A stretch of 64,000 nt of DNA from Muribaculaceae bacterium (GTDB lineage: Bacteria; Bacteroidota; Bacteroidia; Bacteroidales; Muribaculaceae). Where the stretch lies: positions 18,021 through 82,020 of the forward strand of contig JAKVKZ010000004.1 in assembly GCA_022484565.1 (NCBI GenBank). The letters are read 5' to 3'. Of the stretch, positions 3,853 to 18,116 are shown one piece after another (position 1 is the first letter of the stretch; every line of letters starts with the position of its first letter). The notes beneath the pieces were generated by a model that ran no database searches, had not been told where the DNA came from, and worked only from the letters and a program-made list of their open reading frames with translations. Position numbers and translations under genes: made by a program.

Positions 3853-5928
3853 ATGGCAGCATTAGAGAAAATTAGGAAGAAAGCCGTATTCCTTACGCTG
3901 GTAATAGGATTTGCCTTGCTGGCGTTCATCTTGGGCGATGCCCTCACATCAAGCCGCTCAATTTTCGGCAACGACCGTACGATCGCAAAAGTGGGCAGCA
4001 CGAAAATCGACGTTATGGATTTCCAGAAAAAGAACGAGGAAGCTACCGAGCAAATGCAGGCTCAGGAGCAGCAGACCGGTCAAAAGACCGACCCAGCCGT
4101 AGTTCAACAGCAAGTCCTAAACCAAATGATTACCGAAGTGCTTCTCAACGATGAAGCAGACGCCACCGGTATTGACGTTACCGACGATGAACTCAGCGAA
4201 GCCATGATCGGAAAGAACGCAAACCAGCAGGTAGTGCAATTCGCTCAGCAAATGGGAATGCAATCGCCAGCCCAGCTTCATGACGTGCTCTTCAACCCGA
4301 CAAAATTCGGTGCTACAGAAGAACAGGTTGCCAAGGCTAAAGCTCAATGGCTGAAGATGGAGGACGACATGAACAAGAACATGAAGTACCAGAAACTTCA
4401 GATGCTGATTGCCGGAGCACTCCAAGCCAACGACCTCGACCGCAAGGCGATATTTGAGGAGAACGCTTCCACATGCCATATTGAATATGTAAAGAAAGAC
4501 TATGCTACACTCAACGATAAAGACTTCCCTGTAAGTGAAGCTGAAATAAAGGCTGAATACGAGAAAGAGAAGGAATTGTTCCGCAATGATCAGGAACGCC
4601 GTGCAGTGCATTACATAGCAGTTAATGAAGACCCATCGCCATCCGATATGGCAAAGGCCGTTAACGTAATCAACATAACCGTTAAGCAACTTCAGGCTGA
4701 AAACGGAGTTGACCAAGTGAAGAACAATTCTGACCTCACAGTCAACAGCGCCACAGTTCCAGCATCGGCCATCAACGACCCCGACATGAAGGCATTCATC
4801 ACGGGTGCAGCAGCAGGAGCAGTGAGCACACCTAAATTCGCCAACCACATCTACACAATCTTCAAGCTCAACTCAAAGAAGATGGAAACTGACTCTGTGA
4901 AGTTGAACATGATGGTAGTTCAAGGCGACAAGAAACTTCAGGACAGCGTACTCCATGCCCTCAATTCAGGCATGCCATTCGCACAGGTTCAGAAGATAAA
5001 GGGAACAAAGGGTGAGCAAGGCCAATGGCAAGTTGTTACCGGCATAGCCGACAGCATCAAGAACAAAGTGCTGAATGCAGGAGCCGATTATTTTGTACTG
5101 AACTCCTCAGCCCAAGGCGCATATCTTTGCCAAGTAGCAGAAAAGAAAGCACCTAAAGAGATGTACGATGTAGCACAAATCACATATCAGGTTTATCCAA
5201 GCCAGGCAACAATTGATGCATTGCGCGGAAAACTCCAAAGATTCATCAACACCAACAACACAAGCAAGCAGTTCGCAGCTAAGGCAGCGGCAGCAGGTTA
5301 TCAGGCAGGACAAGCCCAGCTGACTGTGGAAGACGCCCAAATCAACGGACTCCAGAGCAGCCGCAAAGCTATCCAATGGGTATTCAAAGATGCCAGCAAG
5401 GGAAGCGTTTCACCTATCTTTGAAGACAAGGGAACAAGCGACCAAATGATTGTTGTGGCTCTTGACGACATTTATCCAGAAGGCTACTTCTCGATGGATA
5501 TTCCTGAAATCAAGCAGATGCTTACACAGAAAGTTCGCAACTCAAAGAAAGGCGACAAACTGATGGCACAATATAAAGGCAAAGCAAACAGCCTTGCAGC
5601 TTACGGTCAACTCATGGGCTGCGCTGTTGACACCACCAACGTGACATTCGGCCAAATGTTCATTCCTAAGATTGGTCAGGGTGAATCACAATTAATCGGT
5701 CGCGTTTCAGTAGCAAAGCAGGGCGCACTCCAAGGCCCGTTCAAGGGTAACAACGCCATCTACGTTTATCAGGTTGTTAAGATTGACCGCACACCACGCA
5801 GGCCAGTCAACGATGAACTTGACCGCCAGTATGCAATGACCCGTGGCTATGGTGCCATCATGCGTAACGCTGTTGAGATTCTCCGCAAGGCAACTACAGT
5901 TAAGAACAATATGATTAAGTTCTATTAA
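3853..5928 (+). CDS. ppiD: Periplasmic chaperone / peptidyl-prolyl isomerase PpiD-like (SurA N-terminal domain family)
   Basis: 691 aa. The N-terminus MAALEKIRKKAVFLTLVIGFALLAFILGD has the single membrane anchor typical of PpiD. Length and overall architecture match Bacteroidetes PpiD. Confidence 0.7.
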   Translation: MAALEKIRKKAVFLTLVIGFALLAFILGDALTSSRSIFGNDRTIAKVGSTKIDVMDFQKKNEEATEQMQAQEQQTGQKTDPAVVQQQVLNQMITEVLLNDEADATGIDVTDDELSEAMIGKNANQQVVQFAQQMGMQSPAQLHDVLFNPTKFGATEEQVAKAKAQWLKMEDDMNKNMKYQKLQMLIAGALQANDLDRKAIFEENASTCHIEYVKKDYATLNDKDFPVSEAEIKAEYEKEKELFRNDQERRAVHYIAVNEDPSPSDMAKAVNVINITVKQLQAENGVDQVKNNSDLTVNSATVPASAINDPDMKAFITGAAAGAVSTPKFANHIYTIFKLNSKKMETDSVKLNMMVVQGDKKLQDSVLHALNSGMPFAQVQKIKGTKGEQGQWQVVTGIADSIKNKVLNAGADYFVLNSSAQGAYLCQVAEKKAPKEMYDVAQITYQVYPSQATIDALRGKLQRFINTNNTSKQFAAKAAAAGYQAGQAQLTVEDAQINGLQSSRKAIQWVFKDASKGSVSPIFEDKGTSDQMIVVALDDIYPEGYFSMDIPEIKQMLTQKVRNSKKGDKLMAQYKGKANSLAAYGQLMGCAVDTTNVTFGQMFIPKIGQGESQLIGRVSVAKQGALQGPFKGNNAIYVYQVVKIDRTPRRPVNDELDRQYAMTRGYGAIMRNAVEILRKATTVKNNMIKFY

Positions 5929-6019: not shown

Positions 6020-6755
6020 ACGTGATCCCATTGACAATTTCCGAGAGGGGGTCTGGACAGGCAAAAGTATATTCAAATGACTGAACATCAATATTGTTAC
6101 AGAGGTGTCCATTTTGTTTTTTCCGCCGTTTGCCCCCCTACCGCACTCTGATGATTTCAACTTCGGAATCTTGATGATTTCAGGCTGGATTTATGCCTCG
6201 CCAAAAGCATAAGACACACAGGATAATTTTTTGCAGCTACGTCCGCAAAATTTATCTGAATGTTTCCCCGCGCCTGAATTTCATACTTGAATCCGCAAAT
6301 TTCACACCATTCACAAGTGAAATCCCACAGTAATTTACTTGCTAATTCTGGGGAGGGGTCTGGACGGGTAAAAACAGCTCCAATAATCTGAACACCAATA
6401 TTGTTACAGAGGTGTCCATTTTATTTTCCCCGATGTTTGCCCCCTACAGCACTATGATGATTTCAACTTCGGAATCTTGATGATTTCAGGCTGGATTTAT
6501 GCCTCGCCAAAAGCATAAGACACACAGGATAATTTTTACACGACTACCAATGGCAAAATTTATCTGAATGTTTCCACGCGCCTGAATATCATACTTGAAT
6601 CCGCAAATTTCACACCATTCACAAGTGAAATTCCACAATAATTTACTTGCTAATTCCCGGAAGGGGTCTGGACAGGCAAAAGCGCCTCCAATAACCTGAA
6701 CACCAATATTGTTTCTGAGGTGTCCATTTTGTTTCCCCCGATACTTGCCCCTCAA
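6020..6755. repeat. Intergenic tandem repeat, period ~307 bp, about 2.3 copies
   Basis: ggggtctggac recurs at 6048, 6355 and 6663. The units are near-identical except for two short variable patches. See findings. Confidence 0.9.
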
Positions 6756-7041: not shown

Positions 7042-7905
7042 ATGCAGTATTGGGCAAACATTGATGGCAAGCAATATGGTCCGCTCGAACTGGAACAATT
7101 GCTTAACCTTAACATCACACCTCATACTTATGTGTGGCGTGACGGCCTTGCCGATTGGATGCAGGCTAAAAACGTGAGCGAACTCGCCGAGATTTTAATC
7201 AAGCCGACTTCTGCCCCACCACTTCCTGCTACACCGCAGGTTGCAACGCCTGATGTACCTGCTGATAATGTAAATAATGTGCCGGAACCGGCTCCAGCAC
7301 CGGAAGTACCGGCTGTGCCCGAACCTGCTTCTGAGCCTGTGGAGGAAAAAACAGAGGAAAAAGTAGAGGAGAAAGTGGAACAAGCGAAGGAATTCGTTGC
7401 AGAACCTACTCCTGAGCCTGAAACTGCTCCTGAACCTGAAACTACACCTGAACCTGAGCCTGCCACTGAAGTCACAAATGAGCCGACTGAAGAACAAGTT
7501 CCCGAACCTGCTGAAGAGCCGGAAGCACCTGTTGTGGCTGAGCAAGAACAAGAGCAAACGCAACAAACAAACGTTGCACCACCGCCTGTGCCTATTCAGC
7601 AGCCTTACGCCCAGCCAATGCAGCAATATCCGCCTCAACAGCCAATCGCAGCTGAAAAGGAAGACGTTTGCCCTTCCACCAACCTTGTTTGGGCAATAAT
7701 TTCGACCATACTTTGCTGCATACCTTTTGGAATAGTGGCAATCCTATATTCCAGAAAAGTGACCAAGACTTTTGAAGCCGGTGATTTCGCCAAAGCGAAA
7801 AAGTACAGTAATCTGTCGCAGAATTGGACTATTGCCGCATTCTCCGTGGGAGTTGTGGTGAATCCGTTCATTGCAGTAATCTGCTGGATTTGCGCCTTGG
7901 TATGA
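7042..7905 (+). CDS. GYF_2 (DUF4339) domain, Pro/Glu-rich linker and CD225/dispanin (IFITM-like) membrane domain protein
   Basis: N-terminus YWANIDGKQYGPLELEQLLNLNITPHTYVWRDGLADWMQAKNV is the GYF_2 pattern. The ~150-aa PEPE/TPEPE low-complexity linker is followed by C-terminus CPSTNLVWAIISTILCCIPFGIVAILYSRKV..., the CD225 two-helix signature. ATG at 7042 is preferred over GTG at 7033. Confidence 0.7.
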   Translation: MQYWANIDGKQYGPLELEQLLNLNITPHTYVWRDGLADWMQAKNVSELAEILIKPTSAPPLPATPQVATPDVPADNVNNVPEPAPAPEVPAVPEPASEPVEEKTEEKVEEKVEQAKEFVAEPTPEPETAPEPETTPEPEPATEVTNEPTEEQVPEPAEEPEAPVVAEQEQEQTQQTNVAPPPVPIQQPYAQPMQQYPPQQPIAAEKEDVCPSTNLVWAIISTILCCIPFGIVAILYSRKVTKTFEAGDFAKAKKYSNLSQNWTIAAFSVGVVVNPFIAVICWICALV

Positions 7906-8279
7906 GCCGTCGTTGGATTATTGTCGGCTTAGGTTGCGCCTTTTTGCTGATAATAGTGTTGGTATATTCATTTTTCGATCCTTCCAACAGCAATTTTTTT
8001 CCTAAATGCCCATTTTTGATGCTTACGGGACTTAAATGTCCCGGATGCGGATCCCAACGAGCAATTCACGCCCTGCTAAAGGGTGATGTGATTGCAGCCA
8101 TCCGATTTAATGCCATGATGGTGGCTTTCATTCCGCTTATCATTGTGCTACTTTATGCTGAATTTCAGCGGACCCGCAAGCCAAAACTTTATTTGCTTGT
8201 CAATTCCAACGTGATTGTGTGGACGATTTTCACTATAGTCATCGGATGGTGGATTCTCCGCAACATCTTCGGATGGTAG
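7902..8279 (+). CDS. DUF2752-family small membrane protein
   Basis: CPFLMLTGLKCPGCGSQRAIHALLKGD is the DUF2752 CxxC signature, followed by TM helices. ATG at 7902 overlaps the upstream stop (ATGA), indicating translational coupling. Confidence 0.65.
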   Translation: MSRRWIIVGLGCAFLLIIVLVYSFFDPSNSNFFPKCPFLMLTGLKCPGCGSQRAIHALLKGDVIAAIRFNAMMVAFIPLIIVLLYAEFQRTRKPKLYLLVNSNVIVWTIFTIVIGWWILRNIFGW

Positions 8280-8415
8280 GCATCACTTCACAAAACAGTT
8301 ACGGCATAAGTCCGTCAACAGGCACTTTATTATGCCCCAACTATCCTTAAATATTTGAATTATCGGCATAGCTTTTCAAGCATTCCATAAAGATTCCATT
8401 TGAGCATATTTTTTC

Positions 8416-8456
8416 AATTTGAGGGAATTTCCCTCAAATTCCCTCAAATTCCCTTT
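8416..8456 (+). repeat. Left copy of a perfect 41-bp direct repeat flanking the Fic gene
   Basis: aatttgagggaatttccctcaaattccctcaaattcccttt, identical to 9825-9865. Confidence 0.95.
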
Positions 8457-8486
8457 AATATATTTTTATTTATCAAATATATAATT

Positions 8487-8494
8487 TATTTTTG
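8487..8494 (+). promoter_or_regulatory. Candidate -7 promoter box (TATTTTTG) for fic
   Basis: Matches TAnnTTTG. Its position argues that the real start is ATG 8518 rather than GTG 8494. Confidence 0.4.
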
Positions 8495-8517
8495 TGGAAC
8501 ATTTTTATATTGCCGAT

Positions 8518-9825
8518 ATGATTGAAAAAGCACCAAAAATAAAATCATTAGATGATGCCTACGCATTATTGCTTAGAGATGATTTAAGACCAGTCTTTAA
8601 TAAAATAAATTCTCAATATCTTTATTGGGACAAGGTAAAATACAACGTTCCAAAGGGCATAGATAAAGAAATATTCTGGTCAGCTGTGAAAATTCAACGG
8701 ATGGCAGGAAGTAAAATAATAAAATTCGGCAAATATCAGTTTAGCTTTTTTATCACTGAGCACATGCTTCAGAAACTACATGATTTTGATCTTAATTTGG
8801 GAGGGAACTTAGGTACGAGTAATCTCATACCAGCAAAAAGCAAGGATTCCTTTTTGGTAAGTTCGATTATGGAAGAAGCTATTGCTTCCAGTCAGATGGA
8901 AGGAGCTTCCACTACAAGGCGGATTGCAAAAGATATGCTACGAAAGGGCATGAAGCCAAAAGACAAAAGCCAGCAAATGATAGGGAACAACTATCAAACC
9001 ATAAATCATATAATTCAACACATAAATGACCCATTTAATATAGAGAACATTTTGTCCATTCATCGCCTCATATCAGCTCATACGATGGACAATGCCAAAG
9101 ATGAGGGAAATTTAAGGCAGTCGAATGATATTGTCGTAATGAATTGTATTAACGGTGAAATCGCTCACACCCCTCCAGCAAAAGAAGAGATAGAACTTCT
9201 TTTAACAGATTTGTGCGATTTTGCGAATAACGACGATGCGTACGGATTTATTCACCCAATAATCAAAAGCATAATTGTTCATTTCATGCTGGCTTTTATT
9301 CACCCATTCGCTGACGGAAATGGACGAACTGCTCGATCGTTGGTGTATTGGTATTTGGTCAAAAATGGGTATTGGCTGATGCAGTATCTTTCAATTTCCC
9401 GAATCATCTACAGAGATAAAGCTTCTTACGAAAAAGCATTCACTTATACAGAAAATGATGGCTATGATTTGTCTTATTTTATTCAATATAACCTAAAAGC
9501 TATGGACAACGCTTTCATAGAGCTGAAGGAATATTTGCAACGTAAGATAAATGAAGCCGATAGCATGAATCTGCTTCACGACATCAATGGCATAAATGAA
9601 CGTCAAGCACAATTATTGAAAATCCTAAAGGATAAGCCAACTACCGTGTTTACAACATCTGAAATTTCCACTCGATTTGGTATCGACATTAAAACTGCAC
9701 GTAAAGATCTTCAGATATTAGTAGATAAGGGATTTTTGGAGAAACGTACTCCGGCAAGAAGTCATAGTGCCACTTACATCCGAACAGAGAACTTTTCATC
9801 ATTAATTAATAATTCAGCTAAATGA
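8518..9825 (+). CDS. Fic-family protein (AMPylase-type) with an N-terminal inhibitory motif and a C-terminal winged-helix-like region
   Basis: Fic active-site motif HPFADGNGRTARS. Upstream SSQMEG fits the [ST]xxxE[GN] auto-inhibition helix. The gene is very AT-rich relative to its flanks. The track ORF starts at 8494 (GTG). Confidence 0.85.
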   Translation: MIEKAPKIKSLDDAYALLLRDDLRPVFNKINSQYLYWDKVKYNVPKGIDKEIFWSAVKIQRMAGSKIIKFGKYQFSFFITEHMLQKLHDFDLNLGGNLGTSNLIPAKSKDSFLVSSIMEEAIASSQMEGASTTRRIAKDMLRKGMKPKDKSQQMIGNNYQTINHIIQHINDPFNIENILSIHRLISAHTMDNAKDEGNLRQSNDIVVMNCINGEIAHTPPAKEEIELLLTDLCDFANNDDAYGFIHPIIKSIIVHFMLAFIHPFADGNGRTARSLVYWYLVKNGYWLMQYLSISRIIYRDKASYEKAFTYTENDGYDLSYFIQYNLKAMDNAFIELKEYLQRKINEADSMNLLHDINGINERQAQLLKILKDKPTTVFTTSEISTRFGIDIKTARKDLQILVDKGFLEKRTPARSHSATYIRTENFSSLINNSAK

Positions 9826-9865
9826 ATTTGAGGGAATTTCCCTCAAATTCCCTCAAATTCCCTTT
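9825..9865 (+). repeat. Right copy of the perfect 41-bp direct repeat flanking the Fic gene
   Basis: Identical to 8416-8456. Its first base is the last base of the fic stop codon. Confidence 0.95.
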
Positions 9866-10061
9866 GATGTCCCTTGAAATTCTGAACGAATATAGGCTTC
9901 TTACTTCTCCAAGCTGCAAGAGGCGGATATATTCTACCATTTCGCTGAATTTTCAGCATAAAAGTCTTTTTAATCACGATTATTCCCGCTTTCGCCCATA
10001 TTTTGCATGTCATCTAGACTTTATTGATGGCTATCATCTTGCTAATTTCTACGGATTATTA

Positions 10062-10069
10062 TATATTTG
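10062..10069 (+). promoter_or_regulatory. Candidate -7 promoter box (TATATTTG) for the acyltransferase pair
   Basis: Matches TAnnTTTG 18 bp upstream of ATG 10087. This supports the shorter start. Confidence 0.4.
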
Positions 10070-10086
10070 CACCTCAAAATGGAAAT

Positions 10087-10902
10087 ATGCCCGAAAAAGC
10101 CCTACATATTGACGTAGCCGAAACCCTAAAGACAAAATTACCGAAATATTATAAGTTTATCCCTAATTTTGCCATACGCTGGCTTGCACACACCATTTGC
10201 CAAGATCAGCTCAATGATATTCTTGAGCGCAACAATGGCAAGGAAGGCGTGGACTTTGCCACCGCGGTGCTGCACGACCTTAATGTAACGCTCAATATTG
10301 AAGGCGAGGAAAATATCCCCGACGAAGGTCACTTCACGTTCGCGTCGAATCATCCTCTGGGAGGACTTGACGGGCTTGCCCTGATTTCATATATCGGGAA
10401 AAAGTTTGCCGGAAAAATCCATTTTGTGGTGAACGACATCCTGATGCAGGTTCGTCCGCTTGCTCCAGTTTTCCTGCCGGTGAACGAGCATGGGGCGCAA
10501 CGCCAAAATGCAGTCAAAGCATTAAACAGTGCCAATTCTTCCGACAACCAAATCATAGTGTTCCCTTCAGGAATTTGTTCACGCCGCCAAATGGACGGCA
10601 TAGTGGCCGACCGCACATGGCATAAATCATTCATCAAAAGCAGTGTGGAATACCACCGCGATGTGATTCCTGTGCATTTTGTGGCTCAAAATTCCAACTT
10701 TTTTTATCGCATGGCAAATTTTCGTGAGCGGATTGGTATGAAATTCAACATAGAAATGATATATTTGCCAAGCGAAATGCTGAAATGCCACGACCGCACT
10801 TTCACTATCCGCTTCGGAAAGCCTGTCACTTGGCAGTCGCTTACTGATTTACCATACGGCGAATGTGCCCAACGCATCCGCAATTTGGTGTATAACTTAT
10901 AA
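10087..10902 (+). CDS. glsA: Lysophospholipid/1-acylglycerol-3-phosphate-type O-acyltransferase (glycine-lipid GlsA-like)
   Basis: PlsC-type motif FASNHPLGGLDG and ..VFPSGICSRR... It lies directly upstream of a hemolysin-like N-acyltransferase, the gene pair described for Bacteroidales glycine lipid synthesis. Confidence 0.55.
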   Translation: MPEKALHIDVAETLKTKLPKYYKFIPNFAIRWLAHTICQDQLNDILERNNGKEGVDFATAVLHDLNVTLNIEGEENIPDEGHFTFASNHPLGGLDGLALISYIGKKFAGKIHFVVNDILMQVRPLAPVFLPVNEHGAQRQNAVKALNSANSSDNQIIVFPSGICSRRQMDGIVADRTWHKSFIKSSVEYHRDVIPVHFVAQNSNFFYRMANFRERIGMKFNIEMIYLPSEMLKCHDRTFTIRFGKPVTWQSLTDLPYGECAQRIRNLVYNL

Positions 10903-13857: not shown

Positions 13858-14409
13858 TCATTGTAATTTAGGCGATTTCCCGTATTCCACCTTTTCCTCT
13901 GCAGCAATCGGCATTTCCGAAAATGTGCCCAGCGATTCAGTTGTGGGTTCTATGTCAATGTTGCTCAATTTGGCATTTTGCCGCATCAGATATATTTGGC
14001 TTAGCCGACGAGCCAGCGCCATCAACGTTGCGCAGCTTTGCTGCTTGCTAAGCTGACATTCCCACACCACCAGCACGTGCCATCCCATTTTGTGAAGTTT
14101 GGCATAATCTTCAAGGTCACGGGCTTTGTTGCGTTCAATCTTTGCTTTCCAAAAGTCAACATTAGTCTGCGGCAATCTGAATTTTCCGCAATCATCGTGT
14201 CCGTGCCAAAAGCACCCGTGCACAAAAATCACCGTGGCATAGCGGTGCAGCACAATATCGGGCGTGCCTGGCAATCGGCGTACATGCAGCCTGTAGCGAA
14301 AACCTCTTGCAAACAGATATTTCCGCACAGTCATTTCCGGCTTGGTGTTCTTACTTCGGATATGCGCCATGCACCTGTGCCGCTGCTCTTTTGTCATTTT
14401 GTCGGCCAT
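13858..14409 (-). CDS. vsr: Very-short-patch repair endonuclease Vsr, with a C-terminal extension
   Basis: TKPEMTVRKYLFARGFRYRLHVRRLPGTPDIVLHRYATVIFVHGCFWHGHDDC is the Vsr signature. At 183 aa it is longer than the typical ~150 aa. Confidence 0.85.
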   Translation of the reverse strand: MADKMTKEQRHRCMAHIRSKNTKPEMTVRKYLFARGFRYRLHVRRLPGTPDIVLHRYATVIFVHGCFWHGHDDCGKFRLPQTNVDFWKAKIERNKARDLEDYAKLHKMGWHVLVVWECQLSKQQSCATLMALARRLSQIYLMRQNAKLSNIDIEPTTESLGTFSEMPIAAEEKVEYGKSPKLQ

Positions 14410-14411
14410 CG

Positions 14412-15329
14412 TTATTTTTTCATTACGTTTCTTGGATGATGCTCCAAAATCTCGCGCCGCAGGAATGTGCGGTCGATGTTCACGTATATTTCAGTCGTAG
14501 TGATGCTTTCGTGGCCGAGCATCTGCTGAATGGCCCTGAGATTTGCCCCGCCTTCCAGCAAATGAGTGGCAAATGAGTGCCGCAAAGTGTGCGGACTCAC
14601 CGTTTTCCGTATTCCGGCTAATTCGCAAAGGTCCTTGATGATATAGAACACCATCACCCTCGTCAATTGTCCGCCTCGACGGTTCAGGAAAAGTATATCC
14701 TCGCAACCACGCTTCACCGTCAATCGGCTGCGGTATTCCCTCTCATATTCCGCTATTTCATCGAGCGCTATGCGCGAAATCGGCACAAACCGCTGCTTAT
14801 CGCCCTTGCCAGTCACTATCACATATTCATCGTCAGCAAACACTTGCGACATTCTCAGCCCCACCAGTTCCGACACCCGCAGCCCGCAGCCGTACATCGT
14901 CTCGATTATTGCACGGTTACGTGGTCCCTCCGGCTTGCTGAGATCGATAGCGGCAATCATTCTGTCGATTTCCTCCACGGTGAGCACAGTTGGCAGTTTC
15001 CGGCCGATTTTCGGCGATTCAAGCAGTCTTGTGGGGTTTTCCTCAACGTACCCTTCAATTTTCAGGAATTTATAGAAGCTCTTTATTCCCGATATTATTC
15101 TTGCCTGCGACCTCGGCTGGATGCCGATGTCCTTCAGTGCGCACACAAAGTTTTCAAGATCCTCGCGCGTCACACTTTCTATTCCGCGCCCCTCATCGTT
15201 GGCATAGCGCAGCAATTTGCTCACGTCGTCGCAATACGCCTCTTTCGTATTGCCCGACAATCCCTTTTCAAGTTGCAGATACACCTTGAACTGCTCCATC
15301 ACTTTAGCTATGTCCTCTATTTTGCGCAT
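14412..15329 (-). CDS. xerD: Tyrosine site-specific recombinase XerD
   Basis: 305 aa. The N-terminal SAM-like domain (FKVYLQLEKGLSGNTKEAYCDDV) and C-terminal catalytic residues ..HTLRHSFATHLLEGGANLRAIQQMLGHESITTTEIY.. are present. Confidence 0.85.
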   Translation of the reverse strand: MRKIEDIAKVMEQFKVYLQLEKGLSGNTKEAYCDDVSKLLRYANDEGRGIESVTREDLENFVCALKDIGIQPRSQARIISGIKSFYKFLKIEGYVEENPTRLLESPKIGRKLPTVLTVEEIDRMIAAIDLSKPEGPRNRAIIETMYGCGLRVSELVGLRMSQVFADDEYVIVTGKGDKQRFVPISRIALDEIAEYEREYRSRLTVKRGCEDILFLNRRGGQLTRVMVFYIIKDLCELAGIRKTVSPHTLRHSFATHLLEGGANLRAIQQMLGHESITTTEIYVNIDRTFLRREILEHHPRNVMKK

Positions 15330-15506: not shown

Positions 15507-18116
15507 ATGGAGCCTAACACCAATAACAACAAAAATGCGTTCGTGCGTCTGTTCACGGACAGGAAATTACTTTTCAGCCTGCTTGCAATCGCTGTTTTCG
15601 CCCTTATTTCATGGGCATATTTCTATCCTGATGATGTACAGAACAACGTGCTGCACGCCCAGGACATCCAAGCTGGCTTGGCCAATGGTCAGGAGGTCGC
15701 CTCATTCCACATGAAGACCGGTAAGACTTACTGGTGGAATAATTCCCTGTTCTGCGGAATGCCATCTTTCCAGATGTCGCCGTCGTACAGCAGCAACGAG
15801 TCGCTCAACACTGTCGGCAAAGTTCTCGGACTTGGTTTCACCTCGCCTGTCAACTTGCTGTTCATCATGATGCTTGGCTTCTACATCCTTATGCTTGCCT
15901 GCAATGTGAAGTGGTATGTGGCTATCCCGGGCGCAATTGCCTATGGATTTTCATCTTACTTCATAATATTGATTGGAGCGGGCCATATTTGGAAATATCT
16001 TACTCTCGCTTACATTCCGCCCACGATTGCGGGCGTCATTTGGTGCTATCGAGGCAAATATCTGCTCGGTGGTGCTGTAGCGGCGCTTTTTGCTGCACTT
16101 CAGATTGTATCCAACCACATTCAGATGTCGTATTATTTCCTATTTGTCATTCTTGCCCTTGTCATCGCTTATCTTGTCAAGGCAATTAAGGACAAGGAAA
16201 TGAAGAAGTGGGGCATCGCCACCGGCACTCTTTTGGTTGCTGCTATCCTTGCTGTGGGGGCAAACATGTCGAACCTCTACAATACCTACGAGTTCAGCAA
16301 AGAGACAATGCGTGGCGGACGTTCTGAACTGCCTGCCGTCGCAACCAGCCAAAATGCCAAGGCAAACGATAAAGCAAACTTGACCAAAAATGGTCTGAAC
16401 CGCGACTACATCACTCAATGGAGCTATGGCATCGGCGAAACCAACTCGCTCATGATTCCTAACGTGTGCGGCGGCTCTTCCGTACGCCTCACGAATGGAG
16501 AAACCAGCATGCTCTCTCTTGCCGAAACGGACAAGGCTAAGGAAATGCTCGATAAAAATGAGATTTCACAGCAGGATTATCAATATCTGCAACAGTTCCC
16601 GCAATATTTCGGCGACCAGCCTATGACTAACGGGCCTGTGTATGTCGGCGCGCTTATCTGCGCCCTGTTCCTGCTCGGCTGCTGCGTAGTGAAAGGTCCT
16701 GTAAAATGGGCTTTGCTGATTGTCACAATTTTGTCAGTTCTGCTCTCGTGGGGGCACAACTTCATGGGACTTACCAACGTATTTATCGATTATTTGCCGT
16801 TCTACAACAAGTTCCGAACGGTTTCAAGCATACTTGTCATAGCAGAGTTCACAATGCCAATGCTGGCAATGCTGGCTTTGCAGAAGATTTTCACTGAAAA
16901 GGATTTCTTCCAGAATCATTCACGCGCACTGTATGCGTCTTTCGGCATCACTGCGGTAATTTGCCTTTTCATCTGGATGTTCCCTGGCGTTTTCAGCCTT
17001 TATTCCCAATCGGAAAATGAGCAGTTCATTCAAAGCGGTGTTGCCCAGCAGGTTCCAACCCTAACCACGGCCATTGAAGCTATCCGCAGGAGCATGATTG
17101 CCTCCGATGCCATCCGCAGCTTTGTCATTATCGCTATCGGTTTCGGCATTCTGCTTGTTTACTTCACTAAGAAGATTAATGCGGTTCTCACCGGCTCGCT
17201 TGTCACCGTCCTTGTGCTGATTGACCTTTACACCATCAATAAGCGCTACCTCAGCAGCAGCTCATTCACTTCCGATAGCGGTATCGCAACTCAGCCTTTC
17301 CAGCCACGTACGGTTGACCAGCAGATTAAGCGCGACACCACAATGAATTATCGTGTGTTTGACGTCCAGCATTTCAGCGACGCTCTGCCTTCCACATTCC
17401 ATAAGGCCGTCGGCGGTTACAGCCCTGCCAAACTCAACCGTTTCCAGGACCTTATAGATTACCAGATTGCTAAGAACAACATGCAGGTAATCAACATGCT
17501 CAACGCTAAATATATCATCACATCCGATTCCACCGTAATGCAGAATCCGGGTGCTCTTGGCAATGCATGGTTCGTGGATTCGTTGACTTTCGTGAATACT
17601 CCGGTTGAGGAAATGCACTTCCTCGATAAATTCAATCCTAAGACTCAGGCTGTGGCCGACGCTAAGTTCAAGTCAGCAATTGGTGGCGCGATACCTGCAA
17701 AGGCTTCCGGCGACACCATCTACGAGGTTACATACGCGCCTGATGAGCTGAATTACCATGCAGTTTCCAAGAATGGCGGTCTGGCAGTATTCTCCGAAAT
17801 CTACTTCCCTTGGGGCTGGCAAGTCAGCATCGATGGCAAGCCTGTGGAAATGGGCCGTGTGAACTATGTTCTCCGCGCTCTCCGCATTCCTGCCGGCAGC
17901 CACAACATTCATTTCCTCTACGACCCGCAATCGGTACACACTACCGAAACCATCGGTTACTGCTCCAACATTCTCATTGCAATTGCTGTTATTGCCGCAA
18001 TTGCGGGAGGAATCCTGCAGGCTGTCCGTCGCAAGCCAGAGGATGAAGCTCCTGCCGAAGTTCCGGCTGAAAAAGAACCGGCTGCTCCAGCAAAGCCTAA
18101 AGCAAAGAAGAAATAA
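15507..18116 (+). CDS. yfhO: YfhO-family polytopic membrane protein (glycosyl-transfer associated)
   Basis: 869 aa with many TM helices. N-terminus ..YFYPDDVQNNVLHAQDIQAGLANGQE.. and ..NNSLFCGMPSFQMS.. are typical of Bacteroidetes YfhO. It has a Pro/Ala/Lys tail. Confidence 0.75.
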   Translation: MEPNTNNNKNAFVRLFTDRKLLFSLLAIAVFALISWAYFYPDDVQNNVLHAQDIQAGLANGQEVASFHMKTGKTYWWNNSLFCGMPSFQMSPSYSSNESLNTVGKVLGLGFTSPVNLLFIMMLGFYILMLACNVKWYVAIPGAIAYGFSSYFIILIGAGHIWKYLTLAYIPPTIAGVIWCYRGKYLLGGAVAALFAALQIVSNHIQMSYYFLFVILALVIAYLVKAIKDKEMKKWGIATGTLLVAAILAVGANMSNLYNTYEFSKETMRGGRSELPAVATSQNAKANDKANLTKNGLNRDYITQWSYGIGETNSLMIPNVCGGSSVRLTNGETSMLSLAETDKAKEMLDKNEISQQDYQYLQQFPQYFGDQPMTNGPVYVGALICALFLLGCCVVKGPVKWALLIVTILSVLLSWGHNFMGLTNVFIDYLPFYNKFRTVSSILVIAEFTMPMLAMLALQKIFTEKDFFQNHSRALYASFGITAVICLFIWMFPGVFSLYSQSENEQFIQSGVAQQVPTLTTAIEAIRRSMIASDAIRSFVIIAIGFGILLVYFTKKINAVLTGSLVTVLVLIDLYTINKRYLSSSSFTSDSGIATQPFQPRTVDQQIKRDTTMNYRVFDVQHFSDALPSTFHKAVGGYSPAKLNRFQDLIDYQIAKNNMQVINMLNAKYIITSDSTVMQNPGALGNAWFVDSLTFVNTPVEEMHFLDKFNPKTQAVADAKFKSAIGGAIPAKASGDTIYEVTYAPDELNYHAVSKNGGLAVFSEIYFPWGWQVSIDGKPVEMGRVNYVLRALRIPAGSHNIHFLYDPQSVHTTETIGYCSNILIAIAVIAAIAGGILQAVRRKPEDEAPAEVPAEKEPAAPAKPKAKKK

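Follow-up and report, generated by a model that had tools for sequence, protein, structure and literature searches.

The Fic gene and its flanking repeats

The stretch of DNA analysed here (hereafter the window; 64,000 nt, positions 18,021 to 82,020 of contig JAKVKZ010000004.1 in the Muribaculaceae bacterium assembly GCA_022484565.1) carries a gene for a Fic protein in the gap between a DUF2752 gene and the gene of an Acyltransf_2 family acyltransferase, and this Fic gene is bracketed by two copies of the 41-mer AATTTGAGGGAATTTCCCTCAAATTCCCTCAAATTCCCTTT (Table 1). An earlier reading of the letters, made without database searches (hereafter the sequence-only reading), had described the gene as an AT-rich cassette between perfect direct repeats, and this description was borne out: the two copies stand in direct orientation with no mismatch, the second begins on the final A of the TGA stop (9825), the Fic gene is the single open reading frame (ORF) between the repeats, and no recombinase was found among the ORFs and Pfam matches within the 1.4-kb unit. 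The shift in composition is likewise real, with 35.1% G+C in the cassette (8457–9824) vs. 43.9% in the DUF2752 gene, 46.1% in the acyltransferase gene, 43.9–47.3% in the flanking genes and 45.1% in the window.

The translated Fic protein has an intact active site, HPFADGNGRTARS, in a wider motif, HPFADGNGRTAR, that fits HxFx(D/E)GNGRxxR, and it scored 63 bits with the Pfam Fic model (cut-off 24). The class II inhibitory helix SSQMEG (SxxxEG), which had also been recognised in the sequence-only reading, lies N-terminal to the Fic motif on the same chain, and its columns S132, S133, M135, E136 and G137 (443-aa numbering) are invariant in 18 relatives. A winged helix-turn-helix (HTH) domain is located at the C-terminus (residues ~362–409), with 26.0 bits for HTH_11 (cut-off 25) and 24.2 bits for HTH_DeoR (cut-off 21), and profile searches found no nuclease or recombinase motif in the protein. 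The PADLOC SoFic model matched with E=1.1e-52 over model positions 22–355 of 361, and the matches in the PDB include CccR (7xux, E=1.9e-11) and SoFic structures (3eqx, ~7e-12). With the NCBIfam SoFic equivalog the score was 70 bits, far under the cut-off of 550, so the protein is regarded as a distant member of the SoFic-type subfamily rather than an orthologue. The ATG at 8518 (435 aa) is the likely start, because the relatives begin with MIE..P; gene callers use the GTG at 8494 (443 aa), a codon that falls within the candidate −7 promoter box.

This box, TATTTTTG, was read from the sequence inside the cassette, and it is labelled a candidate promoter element on the basis of TAnnTTTG, which we take to be the −7 consensus of Bacteroides; copy 1, 30 nt ahead of it, would then occupy what is presumably the place of the Bacteroidetes −33 element. 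A sigma-70 scan returned nothing at 8487–8494 and gave 8 sites vs. 7.7 expected, which is chance level for a model ill-suited to this phylum. A 96-aa ORF at 9822–10112 was considered as an AS1-like antitoxin gene and rejected: its ATG is made by the stop region of the Fic gene and is missing in the alleles without that gene described below, it overlaps the acyltransferase start, and no Pfam hit is on record for it.

Table 1. Positions of the repeats, the Fic gene and neighbouring features in the window
Feature	Position	Strand	Remarks
DUF2752 gene, left flank	7902..8279	+	intact in both alleles
Direct repeat, copy 1 (upstream)	8416..8456	+	probable operator; ends 61 nt 5′ of the ATG
Presence/absence unit, 1409 bp	8457..9865	+	cassette plus one repeat copy; borders unresolvable within the 41-bp repeat
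Candidate Bacteroidetes-type −7 box (TAnnTTTG)	8487..8494	+	30 nt after copy 1
Fic gene, 435 aa	8518..9825	+	class II Fic with C-terminal winged HTH, SoFic type
Direct repeat, copy 2 (downstream)	9825..9865	+	identical to copy 1
Acyltransferase gene (Acyltransf_2), right flank	10087..10902	+	intact in both alleles; a further start chosen by gene callers is ATG 10027
xerD	14412..15329	−	~4.5 kb from the unit; NCBIfam XerD equivalog, 338.7 bits (cut-off 329.6)

The 41-mer consists of a 35-bp palindrome in a 15-5-15 arrangement, AATTTGAGGGAATTT-ccctc-AAATTCCCTCAAATT (8416–8450 in copy 1), followed by CCCTTT, and it can alternatively be parsed as one inverted and 2.6 direct TTCCCTCAAA units in a 10-bp phase. 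As RNA, copy 2 folds into a 16-bp hairpin (−20.8 kcal/mol, z −4.8) that scored as terminator-like. Degenerate 10-nt half-sites are also seen beyond the exact repeat, TCCCTTGAAATTC right after copy 2 (9866–9900) and ATTCCATAAAGATTCCATTTGAG ahead of copy 1 (8380–8415); they are found in the alleles without the Fic gene as well and may be remnants of an older, longer site.

In the whole assembly (2.95 Mb, 93 contigs, 82.5% complete) the 41-mer was counted twice, both times at the Fic locus. No third copy occurs in the window at up to 3 mismatches (0 expected from 100 shuffles), and the 41-mer is absent from 400 genomes of the same family, the genus being represented by this genome alone. These counts led us to reject the possibility that it is a common dispersed repeat, which had been named as speaking against a cassette. 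The 25-nt core of the palindrome had no match in genome, viral and metagenome collections, which may lack records close to this genome, and other cargo flanked by the same 41-mer, as raised in the sequence-only reading, was not found by this weak search.

The Fic gene is present or absent as a precise unit

Alleles of the locus were located in public assemblies through the exact neighbouring proteins. The occupied form was found in at least 12 contigs carrying this exact Fic protein; eight of them were compared as DNA and show no mismatch in the part of the cassette that they hold, and both 41-mers are present in all six that cover the cassette from end to end. Within the same species, four further metagenome contigs, namely L032 (Joint Genome Institute (JGI) 3300056808), L034 (3300053571), L036 (3300012886) and L143 (Logan SRR26424703), have the empty form, in which the DUF2752 gene, one exact 41-mer and the acyltransferase gene follow each other without the Fic gene, exactly the single-copy site that had been predicted. 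At the empty junction position 8456 is joined straight to 9866, and the sequence behind the 41-mer matches the window after copy 2, not after copy 1. Both alleles were present, on separate contigs, in JGI samples 3300056808 and 3300053571. These comparisons demonstrate that the Fic gene is a precise 1409-bp presence/absence polymorphism bounded by the repeat, and the opposite outcome foreseen in the sequence-only reading, namely relatives with no empty site and no composition shift, was not what was found. A circle junction, in which the 3′ end of the Fic gene would be joined through the 41-mer to its 5′ end, was not seen among the contigs retrieved. The search for an empty site in related genera was uninformative, the DUF2752 and acyltransferase genes lying there on different contigs.

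A repeat pair or an empty site may also be created by faulty assembly, and several contigs (L025, L028 and L139–L141) do break inside the repeat. Against such an artefact, each form is bridged by assemblies that were made independently, with different samples and different pipelines (JGI and Logan), and the empty forms carry flank variants of their own; its probability is considered negligible. As for the breaks, L025 and L028 start inside the 41-mer, and L139–L141, all from Logan, begin exactly 30 nt before its end, an offset that equals k−1 for k=31. The repeats fragment short-read assemblies exactly at the cassette borders, and many Fic relatives are known only from contigs of 1.4–1.8 kb, about the length of the cassette.

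The occupied contigs are near-clonal, with 0–5 differences per up to 4 kb of right flank. In the empty contigs the right flank diverges from the window by 1.4% in L032 and 0.7% in L143, and by 3.6–4.4% over the first 135–250 nt in L034 and L036. L143 does not differ from the occupied haplotype in the first 187 nt of its right flank, and L034 differs from it at two positions of the left flank; because these two share flank parts with the occupied haplotype, the flanks have been reshuffled around the site. The solo 41-mer, 137 nt after the DUF2752 stop, is conserved at 41 of 41 positions in all four empty haplotypes, three of which differ by 3–5% in the adjacent 135–190 nt on the right and by ~1–2% on the left. 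Although the numbers are small, the solo site seems mildly more conserved than expected under neutrality, which would fit recent repeated losses or a residual function.

The same bracket surrounds related Fic genes

The survey of relatives covered 80 loci with Fic proteins 50–63% identical to that of the window, from Bacteroidales, Treponema and other Spirochaetes, and a few Clostridia; as these loci are mutually related, statistics across them overstate their independence. Direct repeats between the two flanks were called significant at a score of ≥18, shuffle maxima being 8–13, and 78 loci, the window included, had enough flanking sequence. Such a repeat was detected in 53 of the 78 (52/77 without the window), and in 11 of those 53 it is a perfect repeat of 35–56 nt. 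A GGRAAWWTTYCC-type palindrome precedes the start by 55–75 nt in most loci, and in about half there is one 0–30 nt behind the stop. The distance from the end of the upstream copy to the ATG is usually 17–62 nt, with a family-wide equivalent at about −100 to −40, and the downstream copy begins within a few bases of the stop or, in 27 loci, 5–72 nt inside the coding 3′ end. This overlap with the last codons is suggestive of what a circular permutation of the unit would give, and an extended array of half-sites would account for it as well. In the closest relatives (63% identity; metagenome contigs of Prevotellaceae type), AAAAGGGAATTTCCCTAAAATTCCCTTTTG precedes the ATG by ~30 nt, and ATTCCCTTTTGG or GGGGAAATTCCCC follows immediately on the stop. 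The neighbourhoods of the relatives vary, and no recombinase was present among the called neighbour genes. No close plasmid or phage vehicle was found either, the best plasmid matches being ~35% identical.

The recurrence of the bracket bears directly on the origin of the solo 41-mer. As a strong hairpin behind the DUF2752 gene in every Fic-less haplotype seen, it might be a native element, for example the terminator hairpin of a CD225-DUF2752 operon, of which the insertion of the Fic gene produced a second copy in the form of a long target-site duplication. However, palindromes of the same type flank Fic relatives in unrelated contexts and phyla, which indicates that the palindrome travels with the gene, and the 41-mer was encountered nowhere else in this genome or in the 400 family genomes. 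Moreover, we know of no transposition mechanism that yields a 41-bp duplication, and an insertion by a transposon with target-site duplication is further opposed by the lack of a transposase and of terminal inverted repeats and by the duplicated sequence being a Fic-family motif. A native origin is thus judged very unlikely. Because the motif is specific to this Fic family, the solo 41-mer behind the DUF2752 gene is best read as the footprint of a cassette of this family rather than as native sequence; every Fic-less haplotype seen would then descend from a once-occupied chromosome or would have received the footprint by recombination.

Several loci of relatives showed features of their own. 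The loci of 63%-identical relatives (L039:300–3000, L042, L045:1380–2010 and L046) contain small accessory genes in a row (23S_rRNA_IVP four-helix-bundle, DUF1016/YhcG, AlbA_2/Schlafen-like and a MarR-like fragment), spaced by tandem arrays of 7-nt units (GGTTCAN or GTGAKAR, depending on the genome) and by a recurring element of ~70 nt, GGTTCTTGGACGAGCCAAGCGACAGAGTCGAGCG; what lies upstream of one and the same Fic gene differs between these contigs, and the region resembles a cassette array of a separate kind. For another Fic relative (L092:2140–2230 and 3890–3980; L132:1480–1500), the site was never occupied in a sister species, whose flanks are 12 nt apart, and a third species holds 5.8 kb of other cargo at the same spot (G446:C51:2023–7826). 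The insert is bounded by dispersed 7–8-nt tandem arrays (GAGGAAT TGAGGGTA ...) that occur in at least 10 places of that genome, so that the spot looks like a cassette hot spot and may explain first-time insertion. The closest match in the phage collection was a 47%-identical Fic protein at 450–1601 of MT840011.1 ('Bacteriophage sp.', human faeces, 5,061 nt, unannotated), which may be either a true vehicle or a piece of cassette length wrongly filed as phage.

The repeats are probable operators of the Fic HTH domain

Comparison of the repeats across the family indicated that the 41-mer is most likely an operator, predicted to be bound by the C-terminal HTH domain of the Fic protein itself, rather than a generic att site. 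Across 31 diverged pairs, mismatches between the upstream and the downstream copy affect 5.5% of the arm positions vs. 18.8% of the spacer positions (Fisher p=3e-8) and 6.3% of the positions in the direct half-sites outside the palindrome, a pattern that points to purifying selection on both copies. The half-sites also seem to change with the recognition helix of the HTH domain. The majority helix, KTAR(T/S/A)DL, goes with the half-site TAGRGGRAAWTT, NQTAR with TTTCTCCTAATT arms pointing outward, NRTAH with AATTAGTGATAATTT and [DE][KR]TAR with GCGGAAAT, a correspondence that is suggestive. The pattern GGGAAWTTCCC is found in this genome in the two repeats only; in three other genomes the palindrome pattern marks both flanks of the Fic gene, one of them having a weaker unrelated match in addition. 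A scan of 120 genomes of the family for solo operators with a strict consensus matched one, using a pattern that misses the window's own variant.

A precedent for such a site is available in CccR of Yersinia pseudotuberculosis, a class II Fic protein with a C-terminal HTH domain (PDB 7XUX), which represses its own gene through inverted repeats in the promoter (PMC9755527). The CccR site consists of two inverted 10-mers, and mutation of the palindrome releases expression (PMC9755527). A comparable palindrome is present at the candidate promoter of the window's Fic gene, ~30 nt upstream of the TAnnTTTG box, with an equivalent in most relatives. The sequence-only reading had proposed an attL/attR-type duplication or an excisable cassette. 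The precise presence or absence of the unit, with one copy left behind, agrees with that proposal, but an arbitrary att duplication does not fit, for the repeat is a palindrome typical of the Fic family that stands at both ends of relatives in several phyla.

A proposed twin-operator module and its possible gain and loss

From these data we consider it moderately probable that the locus is a one-gene, self-regulated SoFic-type module with twin operators, and that recombination between the operators removes the gene and leaves a solo site. In the scheme that we infer for operator binding, repression, and the agent and direction of recombination, the module would comprise an operator, a promoter, the Fic-HTH gene and a second operator, would act as a toxin or anti-phage gene, and would have been acquired horizontally into the gap between the DUF2752 and acyltransferase genes. 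The Fic protein, as a dimer or higher oligomer, would bind both operators through its HTH domain and repress its own gene, keeping the level of a toxic AMP-transferase low, and the downstream copy would probably also end or stabilise the transcript as a hairpin. Since the operators are identical over 41 bp and directly oriented, recombination between them could precisely delete 1409 bp and leave one operator, the form seen in the four Fic-less haplotypes; the bracket would be formed anew if, in the reverse reaction, a circle integrated at a solo operator. General recombination of the host or replication slippage is taken as the default agent because the unit encodes no recombinase. That the sites do recombine in nature, by whichever enzyme, is shown by the empty alleles. 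Two histories are conceivable for the near-clonal occupied lineage, which may have kept the original gene or may have regained it via a circle at the solo site.

Several observations weigh against this interpretation. The occupied contigs are near-clonal and the four empty ones represent different haplotypes, a pattern equally compatible with repeated loss and with a recent gain at a solo site of greater age. A clear repeat pair is lacking in 25 of the 78 loci, and the correspondence between recognition helices and half-sites is confounded by phylogeny. A sequence that acts purely as a hairpin would likewise be expected to keep its arms and leave its spacer free, although a protein site is favoured because the outer half-sites are kept and the arm sequence is constant across phyla. 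Finally, 41 bp is a short substrate for RecA-type recombination, which leaves room for a site-specific enzyme acting in trans.

In that case the 41-mer would be a true att- or dif-like site (with a 15-5-15 or 9-7-9 core) used by a recombinase encoded elsewhere, such as XerD/XerC or the integrase of a mobile element. The perfect and direct repeats, the single 41-mer of the empty allele, a palindrome whose short central spacer recalls the core site of tyrosine recombinases, the 11 relatives with perfect 35–56-nt repeats and the nearby xerD gene are all as such an enzyme would have it. The arm sequence, however, varies among relatives and tracks the HTH domain of the cassette, a variation with which a conserved enzyme of the host, such as Xer, could not keep pace. 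The bracket, moreover, occurs in three phyla with no recombinase among the called neighbours, and the repeats vary in length and often reach the coding 3′ end, as a stretch of homology would and a fixed core would not. We therefore regard a recombinase acting in trans as unlikely. The sequence-only reading had mentioned xerD as lying nearby, with a speculative link to the unit; the proximity is real, but the link found no support, since the gene is a housekeeping equivalog found in both the occupied and the empty allele. Nor is there support for a recombinase dedicated to the unit. The xerD gene is directly followed by a vsr mismatch endonuclease gene (151 bits), the pair spanning 13858–15329 on the minus strand. 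Upstream of the cassette, a 308-nt tandem unit (2.3 copies, 87% matches) fills 6036–6751 in the gene-free gap between SurA-like and GYF_2-CD225 genes, and L032 aligns there with many gaps.

Mobility might instead be driven by the Fic-HTH protein itself, if it bound both operators, brought them together and promoted recombination. This idea draws on the sites co-varying with the protein, on the selection predicted for both copies, on a downstream operator that has no obvious role in simple self-repression and is yet kept family-wide, and on the complete conservation of the solo operators in four Fic-less haplotypes, three of which have diverged in the adjacent sequence. It is opposed by the protein, in which no nuclease or recombinase motif was found, by the simpler accounts of the second site as a partner in DNA looping for tighter repression or as a terminator, and by precedent, as we know of no Fic or winged-HTH protein that catalyses or assists DNA recombination; it is considered distinctly unlikely. 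In the widest form, SoFic-type Fic genes would be widespread integrase-less mobile cassettes whose twin operators serve as switch and as recombination handles, the Fic-HTH protein pairing the sites, the gene leaving as a circle and docking at any solo operator, a generalisation that we hold to be rather unlikely.

Genes of the SoFic type count among the more common anti-phage systems made of a single gene, and most of the Fic superfamily is class II. The proposed twin-operator module bears on how such genes are silenced and on how they spread without mobility genes. The locus offers a natural experiment, with two alleles in one species that differ by the gene and one 41-bp site of the gene's family-wide motif, and it suggests a simple way in which Bacteroidales of gut or rumen type may lose a defence gene and perhaps acquire it again. 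A second probable operator, kept by this Fic family behind the gene, is not predicted by the promoter-only model of CccR. If the operators did act as att sites, the binding sites of a regulator would double as the att sites of a minimal mobile element.

Comparison with known systems

Two components of the module are already known, the SoFic-like class II Fic-HTH gene type and, from CccR, self-repression at a palindrome. In the searchable literature no description was found of a second operator behind the gene, of its conservation across the family, or of a precise removable cassette without recombinase. SoFic-type Fic has been reported as a stand-alone anti-phage gene (bioRxiv 10.1101/2022.05.11.491447, Millman et al. 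2022; PMC12249575), and these reports do not mention flanking repeats. Like SoFic of Shewanella (3EQX) and Sofic of E. coli (PMC12249575), the window's gene is a stand-alone Fic gene with the same domain order, and a role in defence is predicted for it, but the cassette has no room for an AS1-like small antitoxin gene. CccR shares the Fic domain, the N-terminal SxxxEG inhibitory helix, the C-terminal HTH domain and a palindrome at its own promoter. Its site, however, has a 10-N26-10 layout and lies at the promoter only, whereas that of the window is 15-5-15 with phased half-sites and recurs behind the gene; CccR is an effector secreted by the type VI secretion system, whereas nothing suggests secretion of the window's Fic protein; and no excision has been described for cccR.

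Among mobile units, integron cassettes and clusters of attC sites lacking integron-integrases (CALINs) are alike in being single-gene units without a recombinase of their own, with a palindromic border and one site at the empty position, and a circle is conceivable here too. They differ in that the window's unit has no integron integrase, attC architecture or GTTRRRY core, has its own candidate −7 box, and has a site that follows the HTH domain of the cargo protein; XerD, the recombinase nearest to the unit, scored 131.6 with the integron-integrase model, under the cut-off of 265. Cis-mobilizable elements (CIMEs) and integrase-less islets likewise have direct repeats around cargo without recombination genes and are precisely present or absent among strains. 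Of the features of an attL/attR pair, the window shows the end repeats and the single copy at the empty site, but not an integrase or recombinase of its own. In such elements the repeats are att sites that belong to a related integrative element and frequently lie in a tRNA gene, whereas for the window's unit no parent element or integrase was seen and the repeat is predicted to be the regulatory site of the cargo itself. Finally, type II toxin–antitoxin operons such as phd-doc, whose Doc has the Fic fold, also hold a toxic enzyme in check by repression at a palindromic operator, as is predicted here; in the window, by contrast, toxin, inhibitory helix and repressor would be joined in one polypeptide, with a second operator behind its gene.

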